From the NCBI GenBank assembly GCA_024654525.1, contig JANLHI010000032.1, positions 128,172 through 192,171 of the forward strand: a stretch of DNA of 64,000 nucleotides, written 5' to 3'. Below are positions 8,225 to 41,067 of this stretch, in pieces. This DNA comes from Patescibacteria group bacterium (GTDB taxonomy: Bacteria; Patescibacteriota; Minisyncoccia; UBA6257; 2-01-FULL-56-20). Within the stretch, counting starts at the first letter, position 1. Each line of letters opens with the position of its first letter. Made by a program: the position numbers and the translations under genes. The notes below the pieces were generated by a model. It saw nothing but the letters and a program-made list of their open reading frames with translations, was not told the DNA's origin and searched no databases.

Positions 8225-9367
8225 CTACACAAATAAACTTTTTTCGCGAAGGAGAAGATTTACAATCTCCGGTCGCATCATTTCCTCCGGTGGATGACGT
8301 TTTGCAATAAGCGCTGCGCGCACTTTGGTGCCGCTTGGGCGTACGCGCTGATTCTCTCCGTGTAGGCATAAGTTTTCAAGTGTCATACCTTTGCAGTCAT
8401 GACAAAATAGCGCTTCTTTGAAGTGAAGAATAATAATGCCCATTTTTGCATTATATTTTGCAAGCGCTTTTTCATAGTCGCGTGGCGCGTAGTAATTTCC
8501 CACGCCAGTGTGATCGCGTCCGATAATAAAATGAGTGCAACCAAAGTTTTTCCGTAGCATTGCAGTGAGAAGCGCTTCGCGCGGTCCTGCATAGTAAGGA
8601 TTATGCTCTAATATACCGAGGAGTGATTTGCCACGAGGAAGAATGTGGCGAGAGAGATATGTATATGCTTTAAGCACCACTTCATTCCGGAAATCTCCGG
8701 ATTTTTTATATCCCACAAGAGGATTTACAAACACACCATCGGTAACTTTAAGCCCTTCACGTTGTACATGTTCGTGTCCGCGATGAGGTACATTTCGCGT
8801 GTGGAACCCCACAATTTTCTTCCAATTTTTTTTCACAAAAATCTCCCGTACTTTTTTTGGAGAGAGATTATAATGTGCAAATTCTCCGCGATCGTCGTGG
8901 AGAAGTATGATATTTCCCGCGATAAGATATTCCTTGCGCGAGAATATTTTTTTTACACCGGGATGTTTCATGTCTGTCGTTTTAAAAATTTGCTTACAGA
9001 AGGAGGTTTTCTTGAAAAGATAAATCTCTTTAACATCCATTACTGCGATTTTTTTTCCGTTTCCCGCGACGAGGAAAACACGCCGCGCATCTTTGATTTT
9101 TTTCCTTTCGGCAAAAGAAATATCCAGGATTATTGGGATAGGCCAGAATATTCCGTTTGTAAGATGCCACGAACTAAGAATGGAATTTACCTCTTTCTTA
9201 CCGAGAAATCCCGTGAGGGGGCTGTATACGCCGTGTGCGATATTGCGCACCTCGATAAAACGTTCTTCCGAGATGTGAAGTTCGGGGAGAGCGAGCTTAA
9301 GAAGGCACGCTCGTTGTCGCGGTGTCGCTATGCGATTAATAAGTTTTCCGCCAAGAGGGTTATTCAT
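8225..9367 (-). CDS. sat: sulfate adenylyltransferase (ATP sulfurylase)
   Basis: GFHTRNVPHRGHEHVQ (the QTRN/HxxH motif) and HFIIGRDHTGVGNYY (GRDHAG motif). 380 aa is typical for the bacterial/archaeal homo-oligomeric form. Confidence 0.8.
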   Translation of the reverse strand: MNNPLGGKLINRIATPRQRACLLKLALPELHISEERFIEVRNIAHGVYSPLTGFLGKKEVNSILSSWHLTNGIFWPIPIILDISFAERKKIKDARRVFLVAGNGKKIAVMDVKEIYLFKKTSFCKQIFKTTDMKHPGVKKIFSRKEYLIAGNIILLHDDRGEFAHYNLSPKKVREIFVKKNWKKIVGFHTRNVPHRGHEHVQREGLKVTDGVFVNPLVGYKKSGDFRNEVVLKAYTYLSRHILPRGKSLLGILEHNPYYAGPREALLTAMLRKNFGCTHFIIGRDHTGVGNYYAPRDYEKALAKYNAKMGIIILHFKEALFCHDCKGMTLENLCLHGENQRVRPSGTKVRAALIAKRHPPEEMMRPEIVNLLLREKSLFV

Positions 9368-9659
9368 TGTTAAGTGGGATGACCTCTTTTGTTTTACTCT
9401 CTGTGCGCCAGATTTTTACATAGACAACCATGGTCGCGGTAAGAAAAATAAGCGCAAGACCGTACTTTATCTGAAGAGGATTTTGATGAATTAAGAGTGC
9501 ATATATAAGTGCAACAATGTTTGCAATGAGAGATATGAAAAGGAGGAGGAAACTCAATCCCTCAACAGTTTTTGTTTGATGCGTTTTTATCATCTGCGGG
9601 ATATAGCAGATACTGAAAAGCACAGTGGCAGTCCATCCGAAAATAGCCGAAAGTTCCAT
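9360..9659 (-). CDS. PQ-loop repeat membrane protein (SemiSWEET-like, 3 TM)
   Basis: 99 aa with three hydrophobic segments. The first contains the PQ motif (ICYIPQMIKTHQTKTVEGLS). The stop overlaps the sat start by 8 nt. Confidence 0.45.
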   Translation of the reverse strand: MELSAIFGWTATVLFSICYIPQMIKTHQTKTVEGLSFLLLFISLIANIVALIYALLIHQNPLQIKYGLALIFLTATMVVYVKIWRTESKTKEVIPLNNE

Positions 9660-24622: not shown

Positions 24623-25442
24623 TTAGTCCGCGAGGAGGAAATCCCGGGTTGCCTCGTGCGGCCAGGGGAGGGTGAACGGCGTCCTGTGGTCGAGCGCCAT
24701 CCATTCCGACCCGCCCCATTGGTTCAGAATGGGGATGTAGCGGGCAAACCACTCTCCCGGATCATTAAAGGCGACGAGGAAGCAATAATCCGGATTGTTG
24801 AATTTCTGGTTGAATTTCAGGATAAGGCGGAGCGCATCCTCCGCGAGGCGTTCGGGGAAGGCGTCGCGCTTGGTATAGTCAGGCCTTGGATAAATAAGTG
24901 CTTCGCCTGCGCGTACTCCTGTGAGTACGGTTACGAATGCTTCGCTTTCCCAAAGATCAATCATGTCGTTTCCAATTCTGAGTTCTTTTGGCTCGGTGCC
25001 GGGTTGGAGTACATGCCAGTGATGATGCGGGAAGTTTTGCCCCGCGCCGTACCCGACATGGGTAAAAATCCACGTGGGGAACGGGTCGGTTCTTCCACAT
25101 ATCATTTCATCTCGGGCGAACCGAAGTGCGGTAGAAAGCAGCTTTCCCCCCCCCTAAACTCCACAGCGTTATCGCATCCCAACATTCATCGGGAGTGATG
25201 AGACGATGGAATGAGAAAGGGCTGTTGTTGTTCTGAAATCCTTTCCATCTTCGCGAGAGAGAATGCTCGTCAATCTGTGGTTGTGTACAAAGGGGGCAAT
25301 CCTCCCTTTTATGGGGATATTGTGGGCAGTTCATAGGAACTTGCCACGGTCGAACTGTTTTTACTGCCGTCCGTGTCCCGCCGCACAGAGTGAGATGTCC
25401 GCCAATCGTGGTTTGTACCACGCCCTCAAGAGGGATTTTCAT
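24623..25442 (-). pseudogene. galactose-1-phosphate uridylyltransferase-like HIT-family gene, frameshifted at a C9/G9 homopolymer
   Basis: The upstream ORF (25442..25107) carries GalT N-terminal motifs (KTVRPWQ, CPLC). The downstream ORF (25105..24623) carries the HIT/GalT active-site GQNFPHHHWHVLQ (HxHxQ). The two are in different frames, separated by stop - 1 nt - ATG. Extending the downstream frame back shows both frames encode ...GGGK... across the 25146-25154 C9 run, which locates the shift there. Confidence 0.5.
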
Positions 25443-33643: not shown

Positions 33644-34351
33644 ATGAACGAACAATCTTCAGCTCCTTCACGGGATATTCTTGTGCCGATTAGTATTCTT
33701 GTCGCAGGAATTCTCATTGCGGGCTCGGTAATATATGTTGCGGGTCTCAATAATGCTCCTGTGGCACCGGTTACTACGCAGGGGGCGAACGCTTTCGCCG
33801 CAATCCTTACTCCTTTGCCGGATGATGCGGTGTTGGGAGATGAGGATGCTCCGGTGACGATGATTGAATATGGGGATTATCAATGCCCCTACTGCGGAGT
33901 TTTTTTTAACGATATTGAACCCAAGATTCGCGATGAATATGTAAAGACTGGCAAGGTGAAGCTTATATTCCGCAATTTTCAGTTTCTCGGGCCGGAATCG
34001 TATGCCGCAGGGGAAGCTGCGGAATGTGCTCGCGCACAGGGGAAGTTTTGGACGTATCACGATGCATTATATCGCGTGGAAATAGCGGACGAGCATGAAA
34101 ACAATGGGAATTTGACGCGAGATTTGTTTATGCGACTTGCGGAAGAGACCGGATTAGATAGTGTTTCGTTTGGCACCTGTATCGATTCCCATACCTACGC
34201 ATCATTAGTTGAAAGTGAAGTTGAGGGGGGGCGTGCCGTAGGAGTGAATGCCACGCCTACTTCCTTTGTGAATGGCACGTTGATTCGTGGTCTTGCGCAA
34301 AACGATACGCGCGTTATCGATGCAATCAATGCGGCACTCAAAGGTCAATAA
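33644..34351 (+). CDS. DsbA-family thiol:disulfide oxidoreductase (membrane-anchored)
   Basis: N-terminal TM helix, the CPYC active site and a thioredoxin-fold context (MIEYGDYQCPYCGVFF). Confidence 0.6.
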   Translation: MNEQSSAPSRDILVPISILVAGILIAGSVIYVAGLNNAPVAPVTTQGANAFAAILTPLPDDAVLGDEDAPVTMIEYGDYQCPYCGVFFNDIEPKIRDEYVKTGKVKLIFRNFQFLGPESYAAGEAAECARAQGKFWTYHDALYRVEIADEHENNGNLTRDLFMRLAEETGLDSVSFGTCIDSHTYASLVESEVEGGRAVGVNATPTSFVNGTLIRGLAQNDTRVIDAINAALKGQ

Positions 34352-34372
34352 TTTAAAGATTATTAATTATTT

Positions 34373-34609
34373 ATGTCCAACGTAACAATTTACACCACTC
34401 CATCCTGCATTTATTGCAAGATGGCAAAGGATTTTTTCACAAAAAATAATGTTTCGTATAAAGAGCTTAACGTGGCGGAAGACGAGAAGGGACGTGAAGA
34501 GATGATCTCAAAATCTCATCAGCTCGGTGTTCCGGTTATCGATGTTGACGGAGAGATTTTTGTGGGGTTTGATCGTGAGGGGCTCGCAAGAGCATTAAAG
34601 ATTCAGTAG
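34373..34609 (+). CDS. glutaredoxin/NrdH-like redoxin
   Basis: 78 aa with the VTIYTTPSCIYCKMAK CxxC motif and the glutaredoxin-fold ending GVPVIDVDGEIFVGFD. Confidence 0.6.
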   Translation: MSNVTIYTTPSCIYCKMAKDFFTKNNVSYKELNVAEDEKGREEMISKSHQLGVPVIDVDGEIFVGFDREGLARALKIQ

Positions 34610-34684
34610 AAATATAGTGAAGAAGTATGAAGTGGGAAGTATGAATTTTTATTTTTCATTTCCCACTTCGTGTTTTATTGCATC

Positions 34685-35605
34685 ATGTACGATCTTCTTA
34701 TAATTGGTGGCGGACCCGGCGGTGTTGCCGCAGGAATATACGCTGCAAGAAAAAAAATAAAGTCAGTGCTTATTACCGACTCGTTCGGTGGGCAATCGCT
34801 TGTTTCCGCGGATATCCAAAACTGGATAGGAACTAAATCGATATCGGGTTTTGATTTGGCAAAAATGTTTGAGGATCATCTTCGCGCGCAAGAAGATATC
34901 GATGTTATTGATGGTGATTTTATCACTGAAATAAAAGATAGTGGTGATGTGTTTACTGTGTCTACAAAAAAGGGAAACACGTTCGAGGGGCGGCGTCTTC
35001 TCATTACTTCTGGAAGTAGGAGAAGGAAGCTTGGCATTCCCGGGGAGAAAGAGTTTGATGGGAAGGGAGTCGTGTATTGTTCAACATGCGATGCGCCGGT
35101 GTTTAAAGGGAAGACGGTTGCGGTTATTGGTGGTGGTAATTCCGGTCTTGAGGCGACATTGGATTTGTTGCCGTACGCACAAAAAATTTATCTCTTGGGA
35201 AGGAGAGATCATCTAAAAGGGGATCCAGTAACGCTTGAACGTGTGCAAAAGAGCGAGAAAGTAACGATTCTCACCATGGTGGAGTCGCAGGAGATTCTCG
35301 GAGATTTGTTTGTAAAAGGGTTGAGATACATGGATAAGAGAACAAACGAAACAAAAGAGATTGCGCTTGAGGGTGTATTTGTTGAAGTCGGTGCCGTGCC
35401 GAATTCCGAGTTTGTAAAAGGACTGGTTGAAGTGAATGCATTCGGTGAAGTGGTAGTGGATCATAAAACACAACGCACGTCTCACCCGCGAATTTGGGCG
35501 GCGGGGGATGTGTCGGATGTACTCTATAAGCAAAATAATATTTCTGCGGGAGATGCGGTGAAAGCAGTACTGAATATTTATGAAGAATTACAGAAGCAGG
35601 TTTGA
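34685..35605 (+). CDS. trxB: thioredoxin-disulfide reductase
   Basis: YDLLIIGGGPGGVAAGIYAAR FAD GxGxxG motif, the CSTCD redox-active disulfide (CxxC) and the VAVIGGGNSGLEA NADPH site. Start at ATG 34685. Confidence 0.8.
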   Translation: MYDLLIIGGGPGGVAAGIYAARKKIKSVLITDSFGGQSLVSADIQNWIGTKSISGFDLAKMFEDHLRAQEDIDVIDGDFITEIKDSGDVFTVSTKKGNTFEGRRLLITSGSRRRKLGIPGEKEFDGKGVVYCSTCDAPVFKGKTVAVIGGGNSGLEATLDLLPYAQKIYLLGRRDHLKGDPVTLERVQKSEKVTILTMVESQEILGDLFVKGLRYMDKRTNETKEIALEGVFVEVGAVPNSEFVKGLVEVNAFGEVVVDHKTQRTSHPRIWAAGDVSDVLYKQNNISAGDAVKAVLNIYEELQKQV

Positions 35606-35832
35606 CTTTCCACTTAGGCGGGATAGAGCAGAAATATGGTTCTTATTACCATTGAAGAAAAAAATAGAACAGGCGGTGGAGCGCGCGGTATAACGCGCCT
35701 TGCGCGAAGTGCTGATTGACCCCGATAAGGGGCTCAAGGTGCGCTCCTTGTTCGGGAAAAACATCCGAACGTTGCGGAGAAATTGCGCGGCAAGGTCCGC
35801 GATTTTGACGAGGTCGTGCGCTCGCTCTAATT

Positions 35833-36252
35833 ATGGCATGTATGGTGGCTCTGGACTGGAAGTTTGCGTTTACTTCCGCAGGAGAGCGGGACTTGCGGGC
35901 GCTCGATGTACCCATACGAAAAAGAGTTGTGGAGAAACTGGAATGGTTTCGCGATAATTTTTCTTTGGTTATACTTGAGTCCCTTGGCAGTGAGTGGCGC
36001 GGCTATTTCAAGTTACGGGTAGGGGATTGACGGGTGGTGTACGACGTTGATTATGAGCTTTACGCCGTCACGGTTCATCGGATTCAACTTCGTGATAAGG
36101 CGTATAAAAAACAAAGATGGGAGCTCGCACGATTTGCGTTCTTCTTTGCAAAATGGTATAATTTCGCCACGTTCTTTGAAAGTTTACATCGCGGTGAAAA
36201 CCAAGTAGCAGCGAGCTTTGAAAGAACGCCCGCGTCGAGTCCACATTTTTGA
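35833..36252 (+). pseudogene. RelE/ParE-family toxin gene disrupted by in-frame TGA (W/Y codon to stop), with degenerate upstream antitoxin remnants
   Basis: ORF 35833..36030 ends ...EWRGYFKLRVGD, then TGA, then the same frame continues RVVYDVDYELYAVTVHRIQLRDKAY. This is the conserved RelE/ParE C-terminal core (rlRvGdYRviY...hRkdiY) with a stop at the conserved aromatic position. The upstream antitoxin is only readable as pieces in three frames (35636..35830). Confidence 0.55.
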
Positions 36253-36293
36253 ATGGCGGATAGGACGTACATCGAAAGAGAGGAGCTGTCAGT

Positions 36294-37004
36294 ATGACAC
36301 TCTTGTTAAATAAAGTTGCGGATGAACAGAAACGGAAACCCACAGGTCAGGAAAAAGACCAGTTCCTAAAACAGGCTGGCGATTTCCAACGGCGGTTTAT
36401 GGATGGTTCACTTGTGCCCAATCGTGCGCTTGAGACTTGGCAACAAGTTTCGGAGGGATGGGTACTCGGGGAATCAGGGGTACCCGAACCAAAACCCGCC
36501 GAACTTTTCCTCGACAAACCGATCCAGCATCCCCACCTCTCATTCGTCAGCGAGTTCGAGGTGGAAGTCCCCGCGGACTTCGCGCTCGACAGTGTCCCGC
36601 GCACGGCATACTGCCCGAACGGATGGAATGCAAACATCACTGATATCAATTTCCCTCGTATGTCGCTCGTCAAAGGCAAACGATATATGGCGGAAATCTA
36701 TCAGTTGCGGTGCAATAAGAGCTCGGAGTCCATCGTGAAAATTGCGGATGAGCGAAAGCGAGTCCTGCCAGGAGCCTTGGGCGGCGCAGTCCTTACGAGT
36801 CGCTATGGAGAAAAACTCCCGAAAGATTTTTGGGTCGTGTGTTTGGATAAAATCAAAAACCTTTGGCGCGATGGGCACGGTCTCCATGTTCCGATCTTCA
36901 ACTGGAACGACTTCGGCTGGGACTTCAACTTGGACATCTGGAACGGCGACTGGTTTCAGGGCTTCTACATCGTGTTTTTCCGCGAGTTTGTTTCAAATCC
37001 TTAG
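36294..37004 (+). CDS. DGR target (variable) protein; C-terminal ~40 aa encoded by VR
   Basis: 236 aa with no signal peptide or TM. The C-terminal WRDGHGLHVPIFNWNDFGWDFNLDIWNGDWFQGFYIVFFREF is encoded by the VR. The variable codons correspond to TR AAC/AAT/GAT/TAC codons. Confidence 0.6.
   Translation: MTLLLNKVADEQKRKPTGQEKDQFLKQAGDFQRRFMDGSLVPNRALETWQQVSEGWVLGESGVPEPKPAELFLDKPIQHPHLSFVSEFEVEVPADFALDSVPRTAYCPNGWNANITDINFPRMSLVKGKRYMAEIYQLRCNKSSESIVKIADERKRVLPGALGGAVLTSRYGEKLPKDFWVVCLDKIKNLWRDGHGLHVPIFNWNDFGWDFNLDIWNGDWFQGFYIVFFREFVSNP
36860..36983 (+). repeat. DGR variable repeat (VR)
   Basis: Aligns without gaps to 37346-37469. The 13 mismatches are VR c,g,t,t,g,g,t,t,t,t (plus c,t,t at the 5' edge), all against TR a. 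Homology ends at ...tttttccgc. Confidence 0.75.
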
Positions 37005-37174
37005 GTTTTGGCTCTCCGAACCTTTGGATATTAATCCTTAGACCCTTGAGTGCTTTGCGCTTGGGGGTCTTTGCGTTTTGGTATACTGTTTTCGGATACT
37101 AGGCGAATATGCGCGCGGTTACGGCTTCGCGCTGCCGAATTCTCGATATGCGCATGGAGAGTTGCGCCGGGTAC

Positions 37175-37196
37175 GCCTGCCTACCGGCAGGCAGGC
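37175..37196 (+). repeat. GC-rich hairpin motif copy (gcctgcc-taccggca-ggcaggc) between DGR VR and TR
   Basis: Shares the cctgcc...ggcaggcagg core with 39361-39378. Confidence 0.45.
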
Positions 37197-37345
37197 TTTG
37201 TGCGAGAGGCATGTGCAATTCGTAAAAAAATTGAAACACTCGGTGCGCCTCGCTAGGTGATTAAAGCAAGAAGTTTAATATCACGAATTCGATACAACTC
37301 CGAGATATGCATTCAAGGAGTGGTGGCGCAGGCGGTGCGGCGCAC

Positions 37346-37469
37346 ACAATGGCGCGATGGGAACGATCTCCATGTTCCGAACTTCAACTGGAACGACTAC
37401 GGCTGGAACTTCAACTTGAACATCTGGAACGGCGACTGGAATCAGGGCAACTACATCGTGTTTTTCCGC
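37346..37469 (+). repeat. DGR template repeat (TR)
   Basis: Non-coding copy of the VR. The core (37351-37469) carries 30 adenines, 10 of which correspond to substituted positions in the VR (3 more at the 5' edge). No non-A position differs. AAC-rich when read in the VR frame (aac x7). Confidence 0.75.
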
Positions 37470-37476
37470 TACTGTT

Positions 37477-37830
37477 TCATTTCTCCTCCCGTACGGAGGA
37501 GTTTTGCTTTATAAGTTGATTATGCCACCCGCCGAGCATCCGTCCCGCTTCCGCAAGCGGTGCGGATAATGCAATATATTTCTTTTCGTCGAGGGCATGG
37601 ATTTCCCACGCGAGCAAAAGGAGGCACTTTCCCGTATCAAGCGCCGTGATTGCATGCTTTACTTCTGGTAGCTTTTCCGTCTTTGGGAGAAAGCAGGCGG
37701 TTACCGTATGCTCGATTGTGGCGATGAGAAGCGCGTCAATCCGCGCGGCAAGCGTGTAACGCGAAGCTTTCGGTATGTGCGGTAGATACTCATGCCAAAG
37801 CTTGTATGCGGAAGTAATTTTGTGAAGCAC
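37477..37830 (-). CDS. Avd-like accessory variability determinant (four-helix-bundle protein), opposite strand
   Basis: 117 aa, basic, predicted all-helical. ...RYTLAARIDALLIATIEHTVTAC...KHAITALDTGKCLLLLAWEIHALDEKKYIALSAPLAEAGRMLGGWHNQL resembles the four-helix-bundle (PF05635/TIGR02436) family to which DGR Avd proteins belong. Sits between TR and RT. Confidence 0.5.
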   Translation of the reverse strand: MLHKITSAYKLWHEYLPHIPKASRYTLAARIDALLIATIEHTVTACFLPKTEKLPEVKHAITALDTGKCLLLLAWEIHALDEKKYIALSAPLAEAGRMLGGWHNQLIKQNSSVREEK

Positions 37831-37868
37831 GATTGGACTCCGTGGGGGGGGGGCTTATAAAGAATCAT

Positions 37869-38915
37869 ATGTTTGAACAGATTATTGCAGTCGAAAACTT
37901 GCTCGCGGCGTGGAAAGAATTTTTGCGCGGCAAACGGACGAAACCCGATATGCAGGAATTCTCCTTGATGCTAATGGACAATATCCTAGCTCTTCACGAG
38001 AAACTACGCAACGGCACCTATCGCCACGGGGAGTACAAACATTTCCGCATTACCGACCCTAAGCCACGTGACATTCACAAAGCCACCGTCCGGGACCGGT
38101 TGCTCCACCACGCTATCCATAGGGTGCTCTATCCCTTTTTCGACCGCACATTCATCGCCGACTCGTTCTCATGCAGGAATGGAAAAGGGACGCATCGCGC
38201 GATGAACCGTTTCCGCATGTTTGCCTATCAAGCGAGCAGGAATCACACTCGCACGTGCTGGGTGCTGAAGTGCGATATCCGCAAATTCTTCGCTTCAGTT
38301 GACCACCATATGCTCATGGAAATTCTCCGTTCCCGGATAACAGATAAAAAGACTCTTTGGTTACTCGGGGACATTGTGGGAAGTTTTTCAAACACAAAAA
38401 TCCCTCGGTTCGCGAACTCGCCACTCCCTTCCCTCTTTCGTTCGCAAGCTTCGGTGGGCTCAGTACGAACGGGAGAACCAGGAGGAATAGGGCTTCCGCT
38501 CGGAAACCTCACGTCCCAGCTTCTCGTGAATGTTTACATGAATGAGTTTGACCAGTTTGTGAAACATCGCTTGCGAGTAAAGTATTACGTCCGTTATGCG
38601 GACGATTTTATAATTATGTCCCAAAATAAGATGTGGCTCGAAACTATCTTGCCAGAAATGGAATCTTTTCTTTGGGGTTGGCTGAAACTTCGCCTGCATC
38701 CCGGCAAGGTGTCCGTTTCCACGATCGCCTCGGGCGTGGATTTCCTCGGCTGGGTGCATTTCCCAAGCCATCGCGTGCTACGAACGGCGACGAAAAAGAG
38801 AATGATGAAAAGAATCTTTGCGCATCCCACGAGCGAAACCTTCGAATCTTATAAAAGCCTTTTATCTCATGGCAACGCATTCGGATTGGAGAAAAAATTT
38901 ATATCAAGCTCTTGA
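37869..38915 (+). CDS. DGR-type reverse transcriptase
   Basis: RT domains are present: RITDPKPRDIHKATVRDRLLHHAI (1-2), SFSCRNGKGTHRA (3), GLPLGNLTSQLLVNVYMNEFD (4, with the DGR-specific [I/L]GxxxSQ motif replacing the group II QGxxxSP), YVRYADDFII (5, YxDD) and LRLHPGKVSV...VDFLGW (6-7). The track ORF starts at TTG 37833. ATG 37869 is preferred; a G10 run lies between them. Confidence 0.8.
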   Translation: MFEQIIAVENLLAAWKEFLRGKRTKPDMQEFSLMLMDNILALHEKLRNGTYRHGEYKHFRITDPKPRDIHKATVRDRLLHHAIHRVLYPFFDRTFIADSFSCRNGKGTHRAMNRFRMFAYQASRNHTRTCWVLKCDIRKFFASVDHHMLMEILRSRITDKKTLWLLGDIVGSFSNTKIPRFANSPLPSLFRSQASVGSVRTGEPGGIGLPLGNLTSQLLVNVYMNEFDQFVKHRLRVKYYVRYADDFIIMSQNKMWLETILPEMESFLWGWLKLRLHPGKVSVSTIASGVDFLGWVHFPSHRVLRTATKKRMMKRIFAHPTSETFESYKSLLSHGNAFGLEKKFISSS

Positions 38916-38939
38916 CAGCCCTTCGCGCGGGGCTATAAT
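38912..38939 (+). promoter_or_regulatory. near-consensus sigma70-type promoter for groES-groEL
   Basis: TTGACA (38912-38917) - 16 nt - TATAAT (38934-38939). Confidence 0.55.
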
Positions 38940-38946
38940 ACTTCCA

Positions 38947-38973
38947 TTAGCACTCTTTAGTCGGGAGTGCCAG
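38947..38973 (+). promoter_or_regulatory. CIRCE-like HrcA operator
   Basis: ttagcactc-tttagtcgg-gagtgccag against the consensus TTAGCACTC-N9-GAGTGCTAA. The left arm is perfect and the right arm has 2 mismatches. Lies between the promoter and the groES start. Confidence 0.6.
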
Positions 38974-38992
38974 ATTAACTTAATATAAGTTT

Positions 38993-39283
38993 ATGCAATT
39001 TAAACCATTGTCTCACCACGTATTCCTTGAGCCTCTTGAGGAAGAAAAGGTGACGAAGTCTGGTATTGTGCTTCCGGAGACGGCTGAGAAAGAAAAGCCG
39101 ATGAGGGGGAAGGTGCTTGCGACGGGTCCGGGTAAGTTGAACGAAAAAGGTGAGCGTGTGCCAATGTCGGTCAAGGTCGGCGACACTGTCCTCTTTAAAA
39201 AATATGGTCCTGACGAGATAGAGATAGAAGGAAAAAAATATTTAGTAGGGGATGAGGATGATATCTTGGCAATTATAGAATAA
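38993..39283 (+). CDS. groES: co-chaperonin GroES
   Basis: 96 aa. ...RGKVLATGPGK...VKVGDTVLFKKYG...IEIEGKKYLV is the canonical Hsp10 sequence. Confidence 0.9.
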   Translation: MQFKPLSHHVFLEPLEEEKVTKSGIVLPETAEKEKPMRGKVLATGPGKLNEKGERVPMSVKVGDTVLFKKYGPDEIEIEGKKYLVGDEDDILAIIE

Positions 39284-39321
39284 CTGAAGTAATCGTTAAT
39301 AACGCGAATTGAGGCAAATAA

Positions 39322-41067
<1,746 letters not shown>

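Follow-up and report, generated by a model that had tools for sequence, protein, structure and literature searches.

A predicted diversity-generating retroelement of a Patescibacteria bacterium and the structured RNA leader preceding its template repeat

The stretch analysed here (the window) comprises 64,000 nucleotides (nt) of a Patescibacteria group bacterium (assembly GCA_024654525.1, contig JANLHI010000032.1, positions 128,172 to 192,171 of the forward strand) and contains a pair of direct repeats which had been attributed, from the letters alone, to the variable repeat (VR) and the template repeat (TR) of a diversity-generating retroelement (DGR). The repeats are included in a cassette extending over about 36150-38900, in which a target gene carrying the VR, a terminator hairpin, the TR, an inverted avd gene and a reverse transcriptase (RT) gene follow each other in this order. 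We are highly confident that the pair represents the VR and the TR of a complete DGR in the chromosome of a member of the Patescibacteria (candidate phyla radiation, CPR). As a DGR the element is ordinary, one more among thousands from CPR bacteria. Its part most worth following is a leader RNA located 5' of the TR, which covaries strongly and ends exactly at the TR.

The repeat pair and the genes around it

Near these positions the repeat finder returned one direct repeat, 36864-36983 versus 37350-37469, ungapped over 120 nt and 92% identical. By column-by-column comparison the pair was delimited as VR 36860-36983 and TR 37346-37469, both on the plus strand and 124 nt in length, with an offset of 486 and no indel; the first mismatch that does not involve a TR adenine is found at 36859/37345 on the 5' side and at 36984/37470 on the 3' side. 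Ten mismatches are located in the core (VR positions 36876, 36880, 36895, 36913, 36921, 36933, 36954, 36955, 36963 and 36964), each of them facing an adenine of the TR, and the 5' edge (36860-36863 versus 37346-37349) consists of one matching column and three mismatched ones, which likewise face TR adenines. With 33 adenines in the 124 nt of the TR and 30 in the 120-nt core, the chance that every mismatch falls on A is (33/124)^13 = 3.4e-8, or (30/120)^10 = 9.5e-7 for the core alone. The original prediction had stated that 13 of 13 mismatches are TR adenines and had counted 30 core adenines, 10 core mismatches and 3 more at the 5' edge. The recount gave the same figures, and the exact pairwise alignment confirmed the statement, neither an indel nor a non-A mismatch being present inside the repeat. 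The VR had also been described as one moderately diversified instance, which is fair for 13 changed adenines out of 33 (A>T 8, A>G 3, A>C 2).

The adenines of the TR are located at codon positions 1 and 2 of the VR frame. Read in this frame, the TR contains ten AAC/AAT codons (residues 195, 201, 203, 205, 210, 212, 214, 217, 221 and 224), six of which are changed in the VR, to CAC, ATC, GAC, GAC, TTT and TTC; GAT>GGT, TAC>TTC (residue 207) and CAA>CTT are the further codon changes. The TR is thus AAC-rich, but the number of seven such codons was wrong: in the codon list given with it, the TAC>TTC change of residue 207 had been entered twice, the second time as the second "ttc". Altogether 21 codons are variable, corresponding to about 3e18 possible peptides, and no TR codon can reach a stop by substitution of A, so that nonsense codons are indeed kept out of the diversified codons as had been suggested. 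At the 3' end, 14 nt of the VR (TCGTGTTTTTCCGC, 36970-36983, plus strand) are devoid of adenine and identical in the TR (37456-37469), as read from the alignment; they are the nearest thing here to an initiation of mutagenic homing (IMH) sequence and may act as such. The abrupt end of homology reported after ...TTTTTCCGC is observed at offset 486 (36983/37469), but a weak similarity (TGTTTCA) goes on beyond it with a 2-nt shift. No second VR was detected when both strands of the whole window were scanned with the TR, A positions being ignored.

All the other parts expected of a DGR adjoin the repeat (an open reading frame (ORF) with the VR, Avd and RT), in support of the DGR interpretation. 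The RT gene (37869-38915, plus strand) encodes 348 residues; its product matches RVT_1 at E 4e-24 and displays LGNLTSQ as motif 4 (the [ILV]GxxxSQ type) and YADD as catalytic motif. Its best solved relative is 8ub7_A (328 residues, plus eight sister entries; E 2e-41), which we take to be the Bordetella phage bRT, versus 6e-18 for group II intron RTs. Relative to the RT of the Liptonbacteria cassette described below, it possesses an in-frame insertion of 26 residues (NTKIPRFANSPLPSLFRSQASVGSVR) at about residues 175-200 (window about 38391-38468), just before motif 4. Other members of the RT clade have different insertions or lengths in the same loop and, as loop length varies across the clade, the insertion was rejected as a sign of decay. 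The avd gene (37477-37830, minus strand; 117 residues) is inverted with respect to both TR and RT gene. Its product matches NF033474 (DivGenRetAVD) at E 1e-14 with 54.7 bits for a cut-off of 80, and PF22296 (bAvd) at E 3e-9 with 37.7 bits for a cut-off of 40. Both matches are significant, yet under the curated cut-offs, and the orthologues in relatives carry precomputed PF22296 hits; a sequence search of solved structures with Avd gave no match. The cassette is flanked by cellular housekeeping genes, coding upstream for a DsbA-like protein, a glutaredoxin and a thioredoxin reductase, and downstream for GroES and GroEL.

The core order TR (plus), avd (minus), RT (plus) is that of architecture B3, TR-(avd)-RT, to which 90% of the CPR set of Wu et al. 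(2018, PMC5758913) belongs. Because the layout is that of architecture B3, the inverted avd is typical and not odd, and it was rejected as a novelty. The B3 DGRs of CPR/DPANN share with the window the gene order, the inverted avd, a Patescibacterium host and a small target without recognisable sequence domain, whose C-terminal VR is A-specific. No architectural difference was found; the text consulted makes no mention of a structured leader, of CTTGG repeats after the VR or of a poly-G tract.

The target gene (36294-37004, plus strand) encodes a protein of 236 residues, of which the VR takes up 41 codons at the end (codons 190-230). An identical sequence is annotated as a hypothetical protein in a Patescibacteria metagenome-assembled genome (MAG). 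Its N-terminal part, of about 55 residues, is helical and is followed at about residues 75-231 by a putative C-type-lectin-like (CLec-like) domain, the model of which resembles the C-type-lectin fold weakly. By eye, neither a signal peptide nor a membrane segment can be seen, and the small target protein is apparently cytoplasmic. Neither Pfam nor NCBIfam gave a match for it, nor did Pfam for 97 tested members of its family. The word-indexed search found only 4 relatives; exhaustive HMMER searching gave 292 representatives of 50%-identity clusters, nearly all of 150-270 residues, matching residues of about 75-231. The VR is predicted to form the C-terminal strands E196-205, E208-215 and E225-231, and the residues invariant among homologues (W191, L197, F202, W209, F211, L213, W216, W220, G223, V227 and R230) alternate with the A-templated positions. 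This arrangement, with a VR made of C-terminal beta-strands and an invariant aromatic/Gly scaffold alternating with A-templated positions, would also be that of the CLec-fold variable proteins (Mtd, TvpA (2y3c) and archaeal AvpA; Handa et al. 2016, as cited in PMC5758913). With moderate confidence, the model points to a divergent, compact CLec-like domain. The target defines a family of about 290 clusters which is unrecognised by any sequence library and resembles a minimal lectin-like domain.

The structured leader and the ends of the TR RNA

Between the stop codon of the target gene and the TR, a non-coding stretch of 340 nt is as conserved as the coding regions (77-92% in 50-nt windows) when the window is compared with the corresponding cassette of a Liptonbacteria MAG (locus L001; the loci compared in this work bear L numbers). 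The leader contained in this stretch can be aligned across loci whose targets and TRs are unrelated. It is a structured RNA of about 250 nt (37094-37345) composed of two domains and conserved in 15 DGRs with unrelated TRs. The 5' domain (37094-37227, plus strand; model R2) includes the helices 37111-37119/37124-37132, 37149-37156/37210-37217 and 37162-37171/37196-37205, whereas the 3' domain (37229-37345, plus strand; model R1) includes a closing helix, 37243-37254/37334-37345, and an internal hairpin, 37293-37305/37313-37325. The leader was located at L001 6797-7067, L012 3255-3481, L013 1105-1326, L014 3263-3483, L016 1262-1497, L018 2225-2456 and L020 2240-2480, and also in L021-L026; in L019, the 3' domain only was present.

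Folding of eight sequences with RNAalifold gave 50 pairs, with a compensatory change at 32 of them. The two halves were modelled separately, from windows 37229-37350 (R1) and 37094-37227 (R2), with training on 8-9 loci. Both models matched the expected sites only in the 177 kb made up by the window and the loci, and nowhere else in about 300 kb overall. An independent test set was composed of 25 IMG/VR loci picked by RT alignment. R1 was recovered (E 2e-6 to 2e-12) in each of the six loci with an RT identity of 48-61% and in none of the 19 with 29-40%, while R2 was strong in five of the former (E 2e-8 to 1e-24) and weak in the sixth. The R2 match directly precedes the R1 match in every case and, in all 15 loci, the R1 match ends 0-5 nt from the start of the locus's own TR.

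The pairing of both domains was compared with slid pairings. In the 3' domain, 92% of the cells are paired versus 27-52% when slid, double changes are present at 15 of 24 pairs and none of 500 shuffles equalled the observed value. In the 5' domain, 92% are paired versus 38-48%, compensatory changes are found at 21 of 24 pairs and the covariation score is 0.94 versus 0.12-0.21. In the window, the last pair of the closing helix abuts the first base of the TR, 37346. As this helix ends one base before 37346, the 5' edge of the TR given in the original prediction is supported independently of the repeat itself.

Some single-stranded segments of the leader are also conserved, among them CCGAAUUCGAUACA and CCGAGAG. 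The adenosine 37238, at the 3' end of the leader strand described below, is invariant in 15 of 15 sequences and is followed by a motif of consensus CUUGGUG (CUYGGUG). Pairing of the hairpin strand UCAAGG of the leader with the CCTTG repeats was considered and rejected, this strand covarying with its hairpin partner and its sequence being unconserved. No Rfam 15 family matched the leader at E values up to 1, either in window positions 35500-39500 or in seven relatives, and across the cassette and these seven relatives Rfam indicated, beyond some unrelated tRNAs, only chance hits of miRNA families. When viral contigs were scanned for the leader motif as a pattern, no match was obtained. The RT-1 to RT-19 motifs (Weinberg et al. 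2017, PMC5737381) are likewise structured RNAs beside bacterial RT genes, proposed to be parts of DGRs or retrons, and are included in Rfam 15; the one tied to a DGR, RT-10, is located 3' of the TR, between it and brt of BPP-1, whereas the window leader is 5' of its TR and has no Rfam 15 match.

Upstream of the leader, an extended -10-like box (TGGTATACT, 37079-37087, plus strand) ends 6 nt before its first base and directly follows the hairpin and T-run that close the target gene. Fourteen of the 15 loci possess a TAnAnT box, often as TGnTAnAnT, at 6-9 nt upstream of their leader. By inference only, this box should be a promoter.

On the other side of the TR, the 10-15 nt that separate it from a GC-rich hairpin are complementary to the leader segment immediately 5' of the 3' domain. 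Strand a of the window leader (UGAAACA, 37232-37238, plus strand) can thus form a long-range duplex with the post-TR strand a' (UGUUUCA, 37473-37479, plus strand). The corresponding strands are CCGUAUGG/CCAUACGG in L016 and GCGAGAG/CUCUUGC in L013. The mean duplex energy is -8.1 kcal/mol for cognate strands versus -4.7 for non-cognate ones, and none of 20000 permutations was as good.

The hairpin itself (37483-37512, plus strand) possesses a stem of 7 base pairs (bp), CTCCTCC/GGAGGAG at 37483-37501, with TTTTGCTTTAT after it; the structure resembles a terminator and overlaps the end of avd on the opposite strand. A GC-rich hairpin with a T-run is present 8-20 nt after the TR in 13 of 15 loci, with unrelated stem sequences. 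In the window, this structure coincides with the last approximately 12 avd codons (...KQNSSVREEK*, minus strand 37477-37515), beyond the end of the Avd profile match, and across loci the stem is conserved while the encoded avd residues change. The constraint of the RNA or terminator probably dominates over avd coding here, and the hairpin may also be an Avd-binding stem-loop. Leader, TR and hairpin would together form a separate transcription unit of about 420 nt.

Related cassettes, the VR flank and homopolymer tracts

The same cassette is present in the Liptonbacteria MAG, which was obtained from several samples. The identity with the window amounts to 65% for the target, 81% for Avd (also inverted), about 67-72% for the RT depending on the alignment and 90% for the TR. 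In this cassette, 23 of 23 core VR/TR mismatches are at TR adenines, and its target differs from that of the window at A-templated VR positions. Such differences between orthologous cassettes are indirect support for mutagenic retrohoming. The homology between the two loci covers about 36150-38900 and ends on both sides, the flanking genes being unrelated, which argues that the cassette travels as a unit.

The RT belongs to a clade of more than 8000 proteins below E 1e-40, the best 120 of which are 58-71% identical; those with organism names come from CPR bins, the origin of most of these close relatives. Nine loci of this clade were examined. In eight of them an inverted avd, or room for one, is located directly upstream of the RT gene, and seven of these eight possess the whole target/TR/(avd)/RT cassette. 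L017 ends just upstream of avd, and L015 starts at the RT gene, with an avd-like gene downstream on the plus strand. In the seven complete loci, mismatches fell on A in 17 of 17, 23 of 24, 17 of 19, 23 of 23, 13 of 14 and 16 of 16 cases, the remaining pair being poorly delimited.

The locus L012 (JGI 3300045452, Ga0484002_000025) is syntenic with window positions 33644-41067, from the DsbA-like, glutaredoxin and thioredoxin reductase genes to GroES and GroEL. Its RT is 70% identical, and Avd and the leader are present, but its target (218 residues) and its TR are unrelated to those of the window. The same backbone of RT, Avd and leader therefore appears to swap target modules. Genome, metagenome and viral scans for the target of the window revealed only the Liptonbacteria cassette and four homologues without DGR. 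These homologues, with no RT or TR within 5-6 kb, are L004/L011 (6001-6762, beside secDF), L008 (359-1051) and L006 (1963-2538, Logan SRR8426594); the last one is encoded on a phage-like contig with a large terminase, so that the target family exists both without a DGR and in a phage-like context.

Other arrangements were seen among the loci. In L016, one TR serves two targets (482-1150 and 2201-2899), with the TR-(avd) unit between the two VRs, and in L026 tandem paralogous targets (540-683 and 1454-1587) are associated with one TR. L025, a 2.8-kb IMG/VR contig, contains RT, target, leader and TR between identical 125-nt ends (1-125 and 2673-2797), and may be a circular or tandemly assembled mini-element consisting of little more than a DGR.

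The 3' flank of the VR contains a cluster of CTTAG/CTTTGG/CTTGA/CTTGG motifs (37000-37064, plus strand). In the 15 loci, CTTGG-type motifs (approximate consensus ACCCTTGGA) occur in 2-6 copies within the first 70-110 nt or so after the VR, ahead of the terminator hairpin. CTTGG is enriched 16-fold after the VRs of related DGRs (p 2e-15) and is found in 10 of 15 loci, with 39 motif hits after VRs versus 6 after TRs. The most conserved single-stranded motif of the leader is also CUUGG. These repeats may mark the acceptor site. They are followed by a 14-bp hairpin and a T-rich run (37040-37079, plus strand; stem 37040-37070), the terminator of the target gene, which is conserved in the Liptonbacteria cassette, with compensatory changes; the other loci likewise possess a hairpin and T-run here. 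GC-rich inverted repeats have been described downstream of the VR in 34% of DGRs (Wu et al., PMC5758913), and the post-VR hairpin may also be such a DGR hairpin or cruciform, or only a terminator given its T-run.

The divergent spacer of 38 nt between avd and the RT gene contains a G10 tract (37844-37853). A tract of G8-G11 occurs at this place in 13 related loci; most members of the clade have one (L001 7562-7571, L010 1259-1267, L012 3973-3982, L013 1832-1842, L014 3976-3984, L015 109-117, L017 429-438, L018 2967-2976, L019 2975-2983, L020 3005-3015, L024 2441-2451 and L025 2462-2469). Two samples of the same Liptonbacteria DGR contain G10 and G9, respectively, and agree at every other position of the 1267 nt that they share. 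An upstream frame with a TTG or GTG start runs through the tract of the window, in frame with the ATG of the RT gene. The tract may be a slipped-strand switch, or the difference in length may be an assembly error at a homopolymer. Further homopolymers were observed inside long ORFs of the window, at 2264-2272 (G9) and 25146-25154 (C9), and in L004 at 9359-9368 (G10); about 0.2 tracts of at least 9 nt are expected by chance per 64 kb, and tracts of this kind may be common to these genomes in general. The leader, the CTTGG-like repeats and the G9-G11 tract were found neither in Rfam nor in the searched literature, the scope of which excluded Paul et al. 2017.

Possible mechanism and competing explanations

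If the mechanism established in the Bordetella phage (summarised in PMC5758913 and PMC6182149) applies here, the TR-containing RNA would be reverse-transcribed by the RT-Avd complex, the template adenines being copied unfaithfully by misincorporation opposite A. The resulting cDNA would then replace the VR and could thereby recode as many as 21 codons in the putative lectin-like domain at the C-terminus, never to a stop. On comparative grounds, the RNA of about 420 nt would begin downstream of the -10 box (37079-37087) and include successively the leader (37094-37345), the TR, a 13-nt segment that pairs back, and the hairpin with its U-run.

In the Bordetella element, as described by Handa et al. 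in preprint 10.1101/2023.10.23.563531, the RNA flanking the TR envelops the RT-Avd complex, and an upstream:downstream duplex together with a TR:Sp duplex (Sp, spacer) positions the 2'-OH of an adenosine as primer. The DGR of phage BPP-1 (mtd-avd-TR-brt, with a DGR RNA composed of avd flank, TR and Sp; same preprint and Handa et al. 2018, PMC6182149) and that of the window have in common A-specific mutagenesis with RT and Avd, a repeat with an A-free 3' end, a hairpin downstream of the VR, RNA that brackets the TR and pairs across it, and a stem-loop directly after the TR. They differ by the avd of the window, which is inverted and downstream of the TR, by the RNA between TR and terminator-like hairpin, about 40 nt versus 140 nt of Sp, and by the large structured RNA 5' of the TR; no 34-bp IMH is recognisable in the window, and its target is small and apparently cytoplasmic instead of a phage tail fibre. 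The duplex across the TR also has its partner about 110 nt upstream, beyond the reach of the survey of other DGRs in the preprint, which was limited to 40 nt upstream and 100 nt downstream of the TR. Since in B3 elements the inverted avd leaves almost no room for downstream RNA, the leader is proposed as the carrier of the Sp functions: by analogy, it could supply the RT- and Avd-binding and positioning functions of the Bordetella Sp RNA in permuted order, and the a/a' duplex with its invariant A could be the counterpart of the positioning or priming duplex.

These elements can be assembled into a single, tentative reading, which we consider possible rather than probable. The commonest DGR clade of the Patescibacteria would use a circularly rearranged DGR RNA, in which a leader of about 250 nt 5' of the TR replaces the 3' spacer, binds RT-Avd and is clamped to the 3' flank of the TR by the covarying duplex. 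The leader, with the invariant A37238 followed by CUUGGUG, would provide the 2'-OH priming site, CTTGG-like arrays would mark the VR flank as acceptor, and the G9-G11 tract between avd and RT would be a slipped-strand on/off switch.

Several points weigh against the main interpretation, that of a complete DGR with a separate RNA unit of leader, TR and hairpin, or limit its reach. Folding of the 419-nt RNA as a single sequence by minimum free energy is unexceptional (z -1.6), covariance-model alignments are biased towards the structure of the model, and the clade comprises more than 8000 RTs, of which the 15 loci represent a small sample. An IMH/IMH* pair as long as that of the Bordetella phage (34 bp) is not evident in the flanks of the VR and TR. 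The start of transcription, its termination at the hairpin and the binding of proteins by the leader are all inferred from sequence. Direct signs of present activity were not found in the consensus assemblies used, and the VR of the Liptonbacteria relative has the same sequence in each of the four assemblies that contain it.

This last observation is what would be expected if the DGR were fossil or dormant, the VR/TR pattern recording past mutagenic retrohoming of a target that is no longer diversified. The target homologues devoid of RT and TR within 5-6 kb (L004/L011, L008 and L006) and the 26-residue insertion in the RT of the window go in the same direction. Against dormancy, all the parts of the cassette are intact and in frame, including the YADD and LGNLTSQ motifs, the insertion sits in a loop of variable length in the clade, and consensus assemblies would hide minority variants; 13 changed adenines out of 33 are compatible with one recent retrohoming event, of which they are the expected trace. 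A dormant element is therefore considered unlikely. The leader could also act outside the RT machinery, either as a cis-regulatory 5' element of the TR RNA (a riboswitch-like or protein-binding attenuator) or as a separate small RNA. Its place between a promoter-like box and the TR is the classic one of a regulatory leader, and its single-stranded motifs CCGAAUUCGAUACA and CCGAGAG resemble those of ligand- or protein-binding RNAs. However, in 15 of 15 loci the closing helix abuts the first TR base, and the covarying duplex joins the leader to the segment just 3' of the TR, a geometry that would be pointless for an attenuator and by which the Bordetella DGR RNA positions its template (preprint 10.1101/2023.10.23.563531). 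The leader is moreover found only with this RT clade and is absent where the RT is 29-40% identical. A role restricted to regulation appears quite improbable in front of these data.

The names "retron-type" or "group II intron" RT given to the clade in source databases would fit with an ordinary segmental duplication or gene-conversion cassette lying beside an RT of one of these types. This explanation is effectively refuted by the restriction of the mismatches to one base of one copy (chance 3e-8) and by the same A bias at 8 other loci, Avd being present as well. Group II intron RTs have SP in motif 4, where SQ is found here, and Rfam indicated no group II intron or retron RNA.

The DGR assignment thus stands, and three features deserve further study, the leader RNA, the post-VR repeats and the poly-G tract. 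In the Bordetella element, cryo-electron microscopy has revealed that the RNA flanking the TR positions template and primer, whereas in the far commoner CPR elements an inverted avd comes right after the TR. The leader, which covaries strongly and ends exactly at the TR, is a concrete and testable candidate for the positioning of template and primer in the DGRs of CPR bacteria.

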